DNA from: Escherichia coli
Lineage (GTDB): Bacteria; Pseudomonadota; Gammaproteobacteria; Enterobacterales; Enterobacteriaceae
DNA: 64,000 nt
Reading direction: 5' to 3' (one strand)
Assembly: GCF_017348835.2 (NCBI RefSeq)
Contig: NZ_CP071375.1
The notes beneath the pieces are model-generated. The model was not told the origin of the DNA. It did not search any database and saw nothing but the letters and a program-made list of their open reading frames with translations. Positions 19,746 to 51,433 of this stretch are shown here, one piece after another. Made by a program: the position numbers and the translations under genes. The first letter of the stretch is position 1; the number at the start of each line of letters is the position of its first letter.

Positions 19746-20104
19746 GTTTTACGTTGAAGAGGTAACCCTGAGCACGCAGTTCTTCAGTCAGGCGTGGTGC
19801 ACCGTAACGCTGTTATTGCTGGGTAAGATCAAAAAACTTTCAGGCAGCTAAGGAAAGTTGAACCAGACATTAGATGAAATATTTCAACCAATTACAGCAC
19901 TAATTCAACACCGCCAGATCGCCAAATAAATCAAGGGGTTACGTGAAAGTGCAGCCCCTTTTTCTTTGGTAGTGACAGCAAAATGGATGTAGTGTGAAGA
20001 ATAATCCCGTTTAATCAATCAATAATACATATTGTTTCAATCTACGTTATTATCTCTTTGTAAAAATTGCCATTTATTCATCATTGAAAACTGCTTTTAG
20101 AACT

Positions 20105-21559
20105 TTATACAATAGAACTATTCACAACAGGACTATTCTCAACAGGATCATCCTCAGAGGAACTATCATCAAAGTCATCATCCATAAATAAAATATCATC
20201 GAATGGTGCCACGCCCGTGATTAGTTTTATTTTATTATTACGATCAGACAAGACTCCATTTAAACCGTTTTCGCTGACGGATTTTAATAATTTCTCATAA
20301 CTCTTATTGTCATCAGGCACATTAAAAATACACGGTGCATCAACATCAAACAATGAAGTTCTCCAATTCACATTTTTAATATCATAGTTACGGAAGTTCT
20401 GTCCAGAAAAGAAGCATCCCTTAAAATCCAACCCACCTAAATTATATAAACCACCCTCTCCTTTTTGTAGAGTAATATTAATTCTGGCTATCTCCCGGAC
20501 AAAACTTCCTTTTTTATATTTGAATACCGTTTCAAGATTTTCCCCAGACAGCTTGACTTCTGGGAATAATTTGAAATTAAACCCTACATCATTATTATTC
20601 AAAGTAGATGAACGGAAGATGGAAAAAGCTTGCAGCGCTGAATTATAGCTTTCGATTTTATCTTGAGGCTGCGCTCTTGGTAAAAATATATAGCAGCACT
20701 CATAAAAATTGAATAAACGTTCTGATGAATTTCCATTTTTATCAAATAATATCCCCCGGAACTCCTTCACAAAGGCATCCGTTATTTTTTGAATATCTAT
20801 GGTGTGTTCCTTTGACTCTGACAAAGATGGAGCCTGTTGAAGTGCATTGCTCATCTGGTTAAGGAACATCTGCATTTCTTTCAATTTATCTCCATAGTGG
20901 CCTTTAACTTGCTGAGAGTTTTTAGTTACAGGTGAAACCTTATCTATTTGGTTGTCATATAAATTACGTGGTTCCATAGAGACATTTGGTTGCGTTTCTA
21001 AAATAACACTACGCGTACTACCTGGCTTTAATGAATCAACATGAAACTCACTTTTTCTTATATTGCCGAATAGGGTCTGTTCATCTCTCTTAGCGGATTG
21101 AAAAAAATGATCAACATTATTTTTATTCGATGACAGGTCAGTTTCAGAAACCGCATTTTCTTTGTTCTCCAGCTTTAGTTTAATGAGAAGATCTTCCCAG
21201 ACCTGCTTGCTTAAACATACTACGTCAGGCTCACCATCAGTAACTAACTCTTCATTATTATCAAAGTATACGTTGAATACTTTTAAGTTATTTTCATCAA
21301 CATCATATTTAATACGTTTTAATTGCTCTCCAGATCCCATAATGACAAAGGCGTTGCCTTCATGATATATACATTCAGACATCATTTTTTGTAAAGTTTC
21401 AAGAGCACCGCGATACGTCGCTGAGGCAGCTTCCTTACAAATTAATTTTATAATACTATGAGCTAGTAGCTCCATGGGGTTGGAAGAATTGTTTCCATTA
21501 CAATTCCTGCTAGCAAAAAATGCGCTAGTGTTAAGTTCGTTGCTTTTACTAACTAACAT
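20105..21559 (-). CDS. Hypothetical 484-aa protein of unknown function (probably the YpjC family), low-GC gene with C-terminal pentapeptide-like repeats and acidic tail
   Basis: Long ORF in very AT-rich DNA; residues about 395-430 read LDFKG-CFFSG-QNFRN-YDIKN-VNWRT-SLFDV (x-D/N-hydrophobic-x-x periodicity); C-terminus DDDFDDSSSEDDPVENS; no signal peptide or TM evident. Confidence 0.6.
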   Translation of the reverse strand: MLVSKSNELNTSAFFASRNCNGNNSSNPMELLAHSIIKLICKEAASATYRGALETLQKMMSECIYHEGNAFVIMGSGEQLKRIKYDVDENNLKVFNVYFDNNEELVTDGEPDVVCLSKQVWEDLLIKLKLENKENAVSETDLSSNKNNVDHFFQSAKRDEQTLFGNIRKSEFHVDSLKPGSTRSVILETQPNVSMEPRNLYDNQIDKVSPVTKNSQQVKGHYGDKLKEMQMFLNQMSNALQQAPSLSESKEHTIDIQKITDAFVKEFRGILFDKNGNSSERLFNFYECCYIFLPRAQPQDKIESYNSALQAFSIFRSSTLNNNDVGFNFKLFPEVKLSGENLETVFKYKKGSFVREIARINITLQKGEGGLYNLGGLDFKGCFFSGQNFRNYDIKNVNWRTSLFDVDAPCIFNVPDDNKSYEKLLKSVSENGLNGVLSDRNNKIKLITGVAPFDDILFMDDDFDDSSSEDDPVENSPVVNSSIV

Positions 21560-22073
21560 TGTCTATTCCTCAATTAATGTCTACATGGCTATTTTTAATG
21601 TTATTACTGTTTGTCACTATAAAAATCGCTCATTTGAGACAATTGCTGACATTAACTGTTTCACATGCTACGCATGGAACTTTTAATTAAATTAGCACAG
21701 GAATGTTAAATTTAATAAACAAAAGGTTATTTCGCTGTATGATAAAAACCACCCGTTATAATTTATTAGTGAAATTCGTTTTTCGAGTGTTAGAAATTTA
21801 TATCTAAATAGCGTTGATTAATGAGAAATGCCAGACTCCTGTAACGCTCATAAGACTCATCTGCCTGCGACGGGTGTTCTGGTCAGTAGTAGATGTTTAA
21901 GGCGTGCCAGAGACATTTCATACTTACTCTACGGCATTGTTCTACATACATTGGTTGTGGTACTCACTCATCATCAGTGAGCGAACAGAGAATAGTTCAG
22001 TGATTTGAGTAATTAACCTGATTAAATGAAGGGGTATAATAAATGATAATACTCTGGCTTTATCGTTAATTAC

Positions 22074-22300
22074 TTAATTCCACATGTAAGCAATTTGCCC
22101 GCTTGGCATAGCGAGCATTTTTTCCAGGTACTTTTGAATGAGTACTGATGGATAAATACATTGCAGTGGCGTGCCACGTACCAAAACACCAGCCCTCATT
22201 CGAAACCACCCACCGCACTTCTTCCTTGAAATGGCGTTAGTCATGAAATATAGACCGCCATCGAGTACCCCTTGTACCCTTAACTCTTCCTGATACATGA
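22074..22300 (-). pseudogene. Possible degraded N-terminal stub of a P4-family tyrosine integrase immediately 3' of ileY
   Basis: Minus-strand translation ...VLDGGLYFMTNAISRKKCGGWFRMRAG... resembles the integrase N-terminal motif ...LADGGGLYL...GSKYWRMKYR...; short, stops at 22074; weak similarity. Confidence 0.35.
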
Positions 22301-22308
22301 ATGATGAT

Positions 22309-22384
22309 TTGGTGGCCCTTGCTGGACTTGAACCAGCGACCAGGCGATTATGAGTCGCCTGCTCTAACCACTGAGCTAAAGGGC
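22309..22384 (-). tRNA. ileY: tRNA-Ile (anticodon CAU, lysidine-modified, AUA-reading)
   Basis: Minus strand reads GGCCCTTTAGCTCAGTGG...CGACTCATAATCG...GGTTCAAGTCCAGCAAGGGCCACCA; cloverleaf with CAT anticodon. Confidence 0.92.
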
Positions 22385-22944
22385 CTTGAGTGTGCAATAA
22401 CAATACTTATAAACCACGCAATAAACATGATGATCATATGATGTAAATAACAGATTTTTATGCGTTCTCATTCATCCTTGCTCGTCATTACACGCGACAT
22501 AAAACCCGACACCGCCTCTATTCGCAAAGTCGATACTCGCAGTCAACAAGCAAATGTTAATAATTAACACTATCTATAGTTATCATCGATTCAATGATAC
22601 TTTGTAATGATTTTGTATCTAATAATATAACTTTATTACATTAGCTGAAGAGTTTTCGCATCATTATGATATCTGTTACTTTTCACGCCATAAAAATAAA
22701 CTTCATATAGCAATATATTCTTTCATAGATCTTATTCTGCTAATCATTAGTTTCGTATGAGCGATTTTTGACAGTTGCCTCTCCAGACCACATCGATAAT
22801 TAAAAAAACAGATTTAAGCATTATCCTTTTCCATATAAATATTGGATAAAAGTAGGACATCTGTTTGCAATTACTTTCACAACAATTAAACATTTTTATG
22901 TTTCCATATACACCATATTACTCTACCATTAGAGGAACTTTATT

Positions 22945-34638: not shown

Positions 34639-35043
34639 TTAGATCAGGAAATCGTCGAGAGATTTACCTTCTGCCAGCGCCTGAGCAATTGGCTTCGGTG
34701 TACGGCCCTGACCGGTCCAGGTTTTAGTTTCACCGTTAACATCGGTGAATTTATATTTCGCCGGACGCGGCTGGCGTTTTTTACCAGCGCGTGGTGCAGC
34801 AGCAGAGCTATTACCCAATAACTCTTCCGGGTTAATTCCGTCAGCTTTCATCAGCTCCAGCCAGGTGCTAATTTTTTCCTGGCGCTCTGCCAGTTCACGC
34901 TGCTGCTGTTCTTCTTCTTCACGTCTTTCTTTAGTGACAACCCTGAATTTTTCGAGCATTTCTTCAAGAACGTCAATGGAGAATTCGCGAGCCATCGCAC
35001 GGAGGGTGCGAATGTTATTTAAACTTTGTAACATTACGGACAT
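34639..35043 (-). CDS. stpA: H-NS paralogue StpA
   Basis: 134 aa, [45 protein letters not shown]... Confidence 0.96.
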
Positions 35044-35710
35044 AATAAAGAAAACCTTTTAACGCCAAAACAAAAAAGTATTTCGTCGCGTAGTGTAAGC
35101 GATCACTTATTATATTTCCACAAAATTTAATCTATTTACAGTCCTGCGCGAGATTATTTCAGCTGTTATTTTCTGAAACTCTCAGAATAATTTCAAGATT
35201 ATATATTAGCCATTTTGATGAGTAATTTAGGTTATTGGTGAACAGAGTGGCGCTCTCTGCTCGCTCATTCCGCAAGCCTGACAAAACCGAAGTGAATAAA
35301 AATGCAATATAACAGAATAAAAGAAAATACCCCTCACTGGTGCTTTCTGCTGTTAATGTACATTTTCTGGCATAAAAAATGCTGTAAATGACCCGGTCAC
35401 GACATACACCGAATTCTCTACGCTTATAGCGTTACCTCCCCCCCAAACTTTCATTAGTGAAATTAAAGGCAATGTCATATCTAATTGATTTAATTGAAAA
35501 TAAATCATATCGGCATGTAAAAATCCACAATGTACAAAAAACGAGCCGTTACGGAATATTTTATCTACAAAAACTGACTAAATAAAAATTTTTCACTAAT
35601 TGATTAGTCATAGCCAGCGATATACGCTATGCGAAAATGCAGATGGCAATGAGATCCACTGCTTTCATCTCCATTAACATCCCATTACGCTTTTATTAAG
35701 GAGCATTAGC

Positions 35711-36159
35711 ATGTTCTCACCGCAGTCACGCTTGCGTCATGCAGTTGCAGATACGTTCGCGATGGTTGTTTACTGTTCTGTCGTGAACATGTGTATTGAA
35801 GTTTTCCTCTCCGGAATGAGCTTCGAACAGTCTTTTTATTCCAGATTGGTAGCGATTCCGGTGAACATCTTAATTGCATGGCCATACGGTATGTACCGCG
35901 ATCTGTTTATGCGGCGGCACGCAAAGTTAGCCCGTCGGGCTGGATAAAAAATCTGGCGGATATCCTGGCTTATGTGACGTTCCAGTCACCGGTGTATGTG
36001 GCGATCTTGTTAGTGGTGGGCGCAGACTGGCATCAGATTATGGCGGCGGTCAGTTCAAACATCGTTGTTTCGATGTTGATGGGGGCGGTTTATGGCTACT
36101 TCCTCGATTATTGCCGCCGACTGTTTAAAGTCAGCCGTTACCAGCAGGTAAAAGCCTGA
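35711..36159 (+). pseudogene. alaE: L-alanine exporter AlaE (YgaW) with an apparent 1-bp deletion frameshift
   Basis: Two overlapping ORFs (35711-35947 and 35878-36159) in different frames together reconstitute a 149-aa AlaE-like protein; the frame breaks in the run ATGCGGCGGCACGC about 35911-35920. Confidence 0.75.
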
Positions 36160-37021: not shown

Positions 37022-37052
37022 TGCAAAAATGATAATAAATACGCGTCTTTGA

Positions 37053-37081
37053 CCCCGAAGCCTGGCTTCGGGGTTTCTTTT
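37053..37081 (+). terminator. Intrinsic terminator after ygaM
   Basis: CCCCGAAGCC-TG-GCTTCGGGG stem followed by TTTCTTTTT. Confidence 0.7.
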
Positions 37082-51355: not shown

Positions 51356-51433
51356 GAAAGACGCGCATTTGTTATCATCATCCCTGAATTCAGAGATGAA
51401 ATTTTGGCCACTCACGAGTGGCCTTTTTCTTTT
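51356..51433 (+). ncRNA. micA: MicA (SraD) small regulatory RNA
   Basis: GAAAGACGCGCATTTGTTATCATCATCCCTGAATTCAGAGATGAAATTTTGGCCACTCACGAGTGGCCTTTTTCTTTT in the luxS-gshA intergenic region; terminator hairpin plus U-tract. Confidence 0.82.

Follow-up and report, generated by a model that had tools for sequence, protein, structure and literature searches.

The 64,000-nucleotide stretch of Escherichia coli DNA analyzed here (the window) contains a divergent pair of genes, stpA on the minus strand and alaE (formerly named ygaW) on the plus strand, and between them lies a long intergenic region (the gap):

34639–35043, minus strand: stpA coding sequence, the left flank, from the open reading frame (ORF) list and the annotation
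35044–35710, no strand: the whole stpA–alaE divergent intergenic region, 667 bp, 34.8% G+C
35711–36159, plus strand: alaE coding sequence, the right flank, apparently frameshifted in this strain, with 1 bp deleted between 35913 and 35914

The StpA protein of the window is 100% identical to K-12 StpA in a protein comparison, and the alaE ATG begins at 35711 on the plus strand. The gap measures 667 bp here versus 668 bp in K-12 (2,798,496–2,799,163), is 100% identical to that of E. coli strain PE164, and belongs to the single-copy core of the species, with only 7 of the 5426 complete genomes lacking it (5419 have it). No feature is annotated inside it in the RefSeq records of MG1655 and PE164. 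The curated MG1655 record does list known sRNAs. An earlier note on this DNA, made from the letters alone, had described the gap as unusually long and as free of ORFs of at least 60 codons, and both descriptions hold: only one longer gap, the 750 bp of tRNA-Ile/DUF5507, occurs in the surrounding annotated 50 kb, and the largest ORF in the gap encodes 51 amino acids (35353–35508, minus strand). Because ORFs of at least 60 codons are expected to be missing by chance in DNA of ~35% G+C, their absence carries little weight.

The same note had called the gap AT-rich with multiple A/T tracts, and this too is borne out, with about twice the number of tracts that composition would predict. The G+C fraction is 0.348, compared with a mean of 0.498 across the 64 kb, and only 2.4% of all 667-bp segments are as low, the others all falling within an island at ~19.8–24 kb. 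Tracts of at least four A/T bases number 22 in the gap, the highest count of any 667-bp segment of the 64 kb, versus 10.2 ± 2.9 in shuffled versions, none of which (0 of 1000) reached 22. The enrichment in tracts hence exceeds an effect of composition alone. A/T tracts impart intrinsic curvature to DNA, and H-NS/StpA as well as Lrp prefer curved, AT-rich DNA. The composition of the gap is truly unusual, and its explanation is ordinary.

An AlaE-based scan across the Enterobacteriaceae yielded 80 loci, one per species, and stpA lies divergently upstream of alaE in 58 of them. Together with K-12 and the window, these loci form a comparison set of 60 sequences, all 60 with the divergent arrangement and with gaps of 475–789 bp at 31–43% G+C. 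Since the long AT-rich gap runs throughout this set, it represents an old feature of the Enterobacteriaceae and not a peculiarity of E. coli. The lengths fall into two groups among the genera, one at ~490 bp and one at ~630–790 bp. Across the family, the two ends of the gap are the best conserved, 35044–35123 next to stpA and 35484–35660 next to alaE, with a peak at 35564–35603.

A similar division is seen within the species. Among 11 diverse E. coli, which were picked to cover the spread of identities in the gap itself and therefore inflate the diversity of its center, the stpA-proximal 189 bp contain 4 segregating sites (π 0.010), the alaE-proximal 213 bp contain 15 (π 0.019), and the central 266 bp contain 44 (π 0.064), with values of π 0.006–0.027 in the flanking genes. 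Compared with K-12, the window carries 23 substitutions and one 1-bp indel; every substitution lies within 35232–35497, leaving both promoter-proximal parts with zero substitutions. At a threshold of at least 99% identity to the window, the alaE coding sequence is found in 5380 of 5420 genomes and the gap in only 9 of 5419. These patterns indicate that purifying selection is concentrated on the promoter-proximal DNA.

The stpA side of the gap can be anchored to a published transcription start site (TSS), placed by a study of 5′ ends in vitro and in vivo at K-12 position 2,798,556, downstream of a perfect TATAAT −10 element (PMC10301672). This position falls at 35103 of the window and defines the following features:

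35044–35103, minus strand: stpA 5′ untranslated region (UTR), 60 nt, from the published TSS converted by the K-12 alignment offset
35109–35114, minus strand: stpA −10 hexamer TATAAT (ATTATA on the plus strand), read from the sequence and in agreement with PMC10301672
35115–35228, no strand: stpA upstream control DNA, from conservation and from published Lrp occupancy and H-NS silencing (PMC10127797, PMC10301672)

The 5′ UTR is identical at 60 of 60 positions among the 11 E. coli, and most of these positions are also conserved across Escherichia. From the stpA ATG through 35228, there is a single variable site (35148) among the 11 diverse E. coli. The promoter itself is silent in the wild type, becomes active when hns is deleted, and also works in vitro (PMC10301672). 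The DNA at 35115–35228 is presumed to bind Lrp and H-NS, and any assignment of the bound bases within it is likewise putative.

On the alaE side, conservation across the family takes the form of short blocks, rich in A/T and each at a set distance from the ATG, with variable sequence between them. In the direction of alaE, these blocks read (C/T)AGAGnATTTT(A/G)TnGACAAAA, then AAATAAAAAT, then CTAnTTG, and finally ATAnnCTA, and they provide the basis for a tentative layout of the promoter:

35552–35566, plus strand: Lrp-consensus-like site CGGAATATTTTATCT (CAGAGTATTTTATCG in most genera), conserved in position in nearly all 60 sequences
35580–35589, plus strand: near-invariant AAATAAAAAT block, conserved in position, at a UP-element-like location of about −55 to −46
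35600–35605, plus strand: putative alaE −35 hexamer TTGATT, from the conservation of TTGnnn-17-TAnnCT
35623–35628, plus strand: putative alaE −10 hexamer TACGCT (TAnnCT in all species), from conservation
35635–35710, plus strand: predicted alaE 5′ UTR of ~76 nt, from the promoter position, with the Shine-Dalgarno sequence AAGGAG at 35698–35703

The Lrp-like site comprises the first 15 nt of the (C/T)AGAGnATTTT(A/G)TnGACAAAA block and is centered near −77 of the predicted alaE start. It differs from the Lrp consensus YAGHAWATTWTDCTR at 4 positions in E. coli and at 3 in most other genera, a likeness that suggests a binding site for Lrp. The AAATAAAAAT block is located 122–134 nt upstream of the alaE ATG in 59 of the 60 sequences, and TTGnnn-17-TAnnCT is found 102–114 nt upstream, likewise in 59 of 60. 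The single exception to the spacing of the latter carries an insertion in the leader. From this conservation, TTGATT-17-TACGCT would be the alaE promoter, and its position predicts transcription to start near 35635 (about K-12 2,799,088), giving a leader of ~76 nt. Within this leader, AGGAG is invariant across the family and the rest is poorly conserved.

As a −10 element, TACGCT is a poor match to the consensus. The automated promoter scan used here missed the TACGCT promoter as well as the real stpA promoter. A ChIP peak of sigma-S RNA polymerase has been assigned to alaE at U00096.2 2797100–2797249 (PMC4447067); by our conversion it corresponds to ~35623–35772 of the window, with the putative −10 hexamer at its edge, which fits the proximal promoter. 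A different alaE promoter, GTGATA-17-TCTAAT, was proposed by inspection of the sequence at a more distal position, ~35455–35483 (Shimada et al., PMC3946193). Its −35 element is not conserved, and the window itself reads GTGAAA at this place.

Between the two promoter-proximal parts lies a central segment with candidate sites of its own:

35232–35497, no strand: fast-evolving central spacer, single copy (44 segregating sites in 266 bp, π 0.064, as above)
35291–35308, no strand: candidate ArgR operator half (ARG box) AGTGAATAAAAATGCAAT, with 2 mismatches to TNTGAATWWWWATTCANW
35312–35329, no strand: possible degenerate second ARG box, 3 bp downstream of the first, a weak candidate with 6 mismatches

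A 100-bp stretch at 35184–35283, which overlaps the stpA-side edge of the spacer, is largely absent outside Escherichia, and adjoining the same edge, strain CUPF12 has an IS1 insertion at ~35209–35217. The density of segregating sites in the center (16.5%) is comparable to that at synonymous sites of the neighboring genes (10–27%, a rough estimate for ygaP, stpA, and alaE), so relaxed constraint suffices to account for it. Diversifying or balancing selection on the center was considered and dropped, given this resemblance to synonymous sites and a sample biased toward diversity in exactly this region. We infer that the center is an insertion-tolerant spacer that evolves at an approximately neutral rate and retains a few small footprints.

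One of these footprints is the ARG box. An ArgR operator consists of two 18-bp ARG boxes separated by 2–3 bp. The candidate at 35291–35308 matches at 16 of 18 positions, is palindromic, and is the only match in the 64-kb window; it corresponds to K-12 2,798,744–2,798,761. Escherichia, Salmonella, and Citrobacter all conserve its core as a footprint. This conserved palindrome in the center had been noticed before the published ArgR binding was found. By ChIP-exo and EMSA, ArgR binds upstream of ygaW (PMC4381063), and the ARG box, with which the published peak presumably coincides, probably explains this binding. From the box it is ~340 bp downstream to the predicted alaE start and, in the opposite direction, ~190 bp downstream to the stpA start. 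Given this remote position, a regulatory consequence is not evident.

Published work on other regulators bears on the gap as a whole. In genomic SELEX, both H-NS and RpoD holoenzyme bind the stpA–alaE spacer (PMC3946193). ChIP-seq of Lrp, which the earlier note had named as a check, displays strong peaks at stpA–alaE together with one inside ygaP, and removal of the ygaP site causes a more than 5-fold loss of the activation of stpA by Lrp (PMC10127797). Atomic force microscopy (AFM) in the same study visualizes Lrp bridging a stpA–alaE fragment to the ygaP site, with leucine abolishing the bridging, and a PalaE-lacZ reporter responds to Lrp with slight repression in minimal medium but with strong activation once leucine, isoleucine, and valine are present (PMC10127797). 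Activation of alaE by Lrp with alanine or leucine has also been described, as have a more than 300-fold induction after addition of valine and activation by ppGpp (PMC6801825, PMC7066862).

The SELEX, ChIP, reporter, and bridging experiments thus supply most of the support for the proposal in the earlier note that this DNA is bound by H-NS and regulated by Lrp. Its placement of the stpA promoter and the alaE upstream region within the gap is confirmed by the published stpA TSS, the activity of the PalaE-lacZ reporter, and the conserved TTGnnn-17-TAnnCT. Simple consensus scans of the gap for Lrp and H-NS motifs gave no enrichment: the Lrp consensus YAGHAWATTWTDCTR has 3 matches at 3 mismatches, compared with ~1.2 expected from the window-wide rate, and the gap shows no excess of the high-affinity H-NS motif TCGATAAATT. 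Hence, published experiments and the AT-rich composition, rather than the number of motifs, carry the case for binding.

The earlier note had further suggested that an unannotated small RNA or a small protein might fit into the gap, for which no test run here gave any support. An independent sRNA gene on either strand, complete with promoter and terminator, would find ample space, and AT-rich DNA offers many promoter-like hexamers; two weak promoter matches (9/12) do touch the gap, at 35018–35046 on the plus strand and 35196–35168 on the minus strand. Such matches are, however, no more frequent than in shuffled sequence (5 versus 3.3 ± 1.9). In a sliding calculation of minimum free energy (MFE) on both strands, 47 of 48 segments have unremarkable folding z-scores, and the one that stands out, a 90-nt segment of the minus strand at 35590–35679 that is antisense to the alaE promoter, has z = −3.1, which is about what 48 tests give. 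Rfam yields no match in the gap even at E ≤ 10 and chance-level matches only in the 4 kb around it, a scan of the whole window at gathering thresholds likewise has no match in the gap, and terminator-like hairpins followed by a T-run are missing from both strands of 35044–35710. With no consensus structure either (see below) and no annotation in MG1655, a hidden sRNA gene is very unlikely. We regard as equally improbable a distal promoter for alaE near 35480, which would turn 35484–35660 into a long structured leader in the manner of an alanine riboswitch or attenuator. The conserved 180-bp block upstream of alaE, the distal hexamer pair proposed in PMC3946193, and the response of alaE to alanine and leucine would all be compatible with such a leader. 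Nevertheless, RNAalifold finds 0 consensus pairs across 21 species in the conserved 230 nt upstream of alaE, so that conservation here acts on the DNA sequence and not on RNA structure, and a terminator or attenuator hairpin is absent. Short blocks at fixed distances are the pattern expected of protein-binding sites, the −35 of the proposed distal promoter is already altered in the window, the sigma-S polymerase peak lies at the proximal position, and induction by alanine or leucine is reported to act through Lrp and to be lost in an lrp mutant.

A small protein or regulatory upstream ORF encoded in the gap is an unlikely reading too, and its main candidate is situated in the alaE leader:

35637–35699, plus strand: 20-codon upstream ORF in the alaE leader, read from the sequence, probably not functional

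This ORF remains uninterrupted in the 11 E. coli (the window and 10 of 10 others) and, among the 5 other Escherichia, in E. albertii and Escherichia sp. MOD1, its TAA stop (35697–35699) overlaps the AAGGAG of alaE, and its ATG (K-12 2,799,090) is only 2 nt from the predicted alaE start, which makes a leaderless start conceivable. It is, however, cut to 5 codons in the remaining 3 of 5 Escherichia, and no ATG is present at that place in Salmonella, Citrobacter, and Enterobacter; between E. coli and E. albertii, ~55% of its amino acids versus ~27% of its nucleotides have changed, a roughly neutral divergence, and its invariance within E. coli is common to the whole of the promoter-proximal DNA. 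The remaining ORFs fare worse: among 17 ORFs of at least 12 amino acids in the gap, none stays intact across Escherichia (10 other E. coli and 5 other Escherichia), and all apart from the 20-codon ORF are broken within E. coli or the genus. The 51-amino-acid ORF is interrupted by a TGA stop in K-12, and a 29-amino-acid ORF has 3 non-synonymous changes against 1 synonymous change and a stop in MOD1. Translations of the gap ORFs have no meaningful match in Pfam, and two small-ORF supplements (Stringer et al. 2021 and an Enterobacteriaceae microproteome survey) have no entry near stpA/alaE, which is weak negative evidence. Least credible of all is that the center represents a decayed mobile element or the remnant of a lost gene. 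The ~100 bp at 35184–35283 that are absent outside Escherichia, the bimodal gap length, the high polymorphism of the center, and its acceptance of IS1 in one strain could be read in this way. Against this stand its single-copy state (a median of one place per E. coli genome), the lack of notable terminal or internal repeats and of any ORF with meaningful similarity to a family, and a level of diversity that, as for an unconstrained spacer, approximates that of synonymous sites in the neighboring genes.

We therefore consider it highly probable that the gap is a shared, protein-bound control region of the divergent stpA and alaE genes and that it contains no additional gene. In the arrangement we propose, an stpA module at ~35044–35228 comprises a sigma-70 promoter with a perfect TATAAT, a start at 35103, and a 60-nt leader. 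H-NS keeps this promoter silent, and Lrp bound upstream turns it on, aided by bridging to the ygaP site ~1 kb away. An alaE module at ~35519–35710 would consist of the Lrp-type site at about −77, the invariant A-rich block at about −50, and the weak promoter TTGATT-17-TACGCT, which Lrp charged with alanine or leucine would switch on near 35635 with the help of ppGpp. Such a switch, in combination with ppGpp, would fit the very large induction reported for alaE. The two modules would be held apart by the ~270-bp central spacer, evolving almost neutrally and carrying a few footprints, the ARG box among them, and the high content of A/T tracts would offer H-NS/StpA and Lrp the curved, AT-rich DNA that they prefer. 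As a long shot, the 20-codon ORF at 35637–35699, specific to E. coli and E. albertii, may be translated, perhaps without a leader, and tune alaE translation in a lineage-specific manner, or the ArgR footprint may couple arginine status to the Lrp-bridged complex.

The regulatory role of the stpA–alaE region is already published, and the idea of a small RNA or small protein is unsupported. As the locus already serves as a model for bridging by Lrp and silencing by H-NS, the importance of the present analysis extends little beyond a tidy annotation. Its by-products are a family-wide map of constraint, a candidate core promoter and Lrp-type site for alaE (59 of 60 sequences), and a likely sequence basis for the binding of ArgR. 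The negative result also counts, in that a gap can be long and AT-rich without hiding a gene.

Compared with known systems, the closest is the stpA–alaE (ygaW) region of K-12, which is the same locus and differs only at the level of the strain: the window has a rarer central allele (at least 99% identity in 9 of 5419 genomes) and an apparent frameshift in alaE. With paired ArgR operators, the gap shares one good box (16 of 18 positions), whereas the partner box is poor (6 mismatches). It resembles the H-NS/StpA-silenced proU, bgl, and hns in its low G+C, its excess of A/T tracts, its binding of H-NS in SELEX, and the de-repression of stpA in delta-hns. Unlike acquired DNA silenced by H-NS, however, the gap is core, vertically inherited, and conserved across the Enterobacteriaceae, and TCGATAAATT is not enriched in it. 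The Lrp-regulated promoters of ilvIH, dadAX, oppA, and pap, with multiple phased upstream sites and wrapping or bridging of the DNA, have in common with the gap long AT-rich upstream DNA, several candidate Lrp-like sites, an effector-dependent switch between repression and activation, and a second, distant peak that affects expression. The motif scan singled out no individual Lrp sites in the gap. In contrast to these promoters, a single Lrp-bound region here serves two divergent promoters, and its partner site lies inside ygaP.

In PE164, the E. coli strain identical to the window across the stpA-alaE gap, the gene downstream of the control region appears to be disrupted. Relative to K-12, alaE (35711-36159) carries a 1-bp deletion at 35913/35914 (GCG-GCGGCA versus GCGCGCGGCA) that splits the reading frame into two ORFs of 78 and 93 amino acids, and PGAP labels the PE164 gene "frameshifted." Among the 5420 complete genomes with a match, this 449-bp form of alaE occurs in PE164 only. 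Unless the deletion is an assembly indel error, the gene controlled by this region is therefore broken in this strain. The glaH/csiD gene (window about 25532-26510), less than 10 kb from alaE, is likewise annotated as "frameshifted" in PE164. Because two private frameshifts lie so near each other, we suspect indel errors in the assembly rather than real pseudogenes at both genes.

A PhoB site falls inside the alaE coding sequence:

35725-35742, PhoB ChIP-seq site AGTCACGCTTGCGTCATG, alaE codons 5-11 (K-12 position 2799166; PMC10294691)

PMC10294691 lists this sequence as a ChIP-seq site, and its title emphasizes numerous intragenic PhoB sites that are transcriptionally inert. The alaE read counts given there, 83 versus 58, differ little.

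The control region and its surroundings vary among related genomes. In strain CUPF12 (locus L088), an IS1 element lies within the gap at the equivalent of window about 35209-35217, upstream of the stpA start by ~110 bp. Its flanks overlap by 9 bp, representing a target duplication; the stpA promoter is thereby cut off from the remaining control region. On the alaE side, the Citrobacter amalonaticus locus (L011) carries a G+C-rich insertion of ~130 bp between the conserved promoter blocks and the Shine-Dalgarno sequence, resulting in a far longer alaE leader. Further downstream, from about 37041 onward, the alignment beyond ygaM fails for four E. coli strains (L085, L089, L090, and L092). A gene of the PLP-dependent aminotransferase family immediately follows ygaM in these strains, at the place occupied by the ygaM-nrdH spacer in the window and in K-12.

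Within the window, only one other stretch, at about 19800-24100 (G+C 0.30-0.36), is as AT-rich as the stpA-alaE gap. It has the appearance of a horizontally acquired island and surrounds tRNA-Ile, a DUF5507 gene, a recombinase fragment, and the ypjA autotransporter gene.

The 3' end of ygaM displays complementarity to the small RNA MicA, involving the following features:

37025-37051, + strand, MicA-complementary stretch in the ygaM 3' UTR, directly before the terminator hairpin
37052-37080, ygaM terminator hairpin
51356-51427, MicA gene

Of the 23 nt at the 5' end of MicA, 20 are matched by complementary bases in this stretch, and one of the mismatches is a potential G-U pair. The core of the stretch, AATAAATACGCGTC, is found at the same position in loci from Escherichia, Trabulsiella, Yokenella, and Klebsiella. 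Judged by sequence, the ygaM 3' end looks like a candidate MicA pairing site, which could act as a target or as a sponge. Such pairing may already have been reported, since "MicA" and "ygaM" are both named in two Hfq-CLASH papers.
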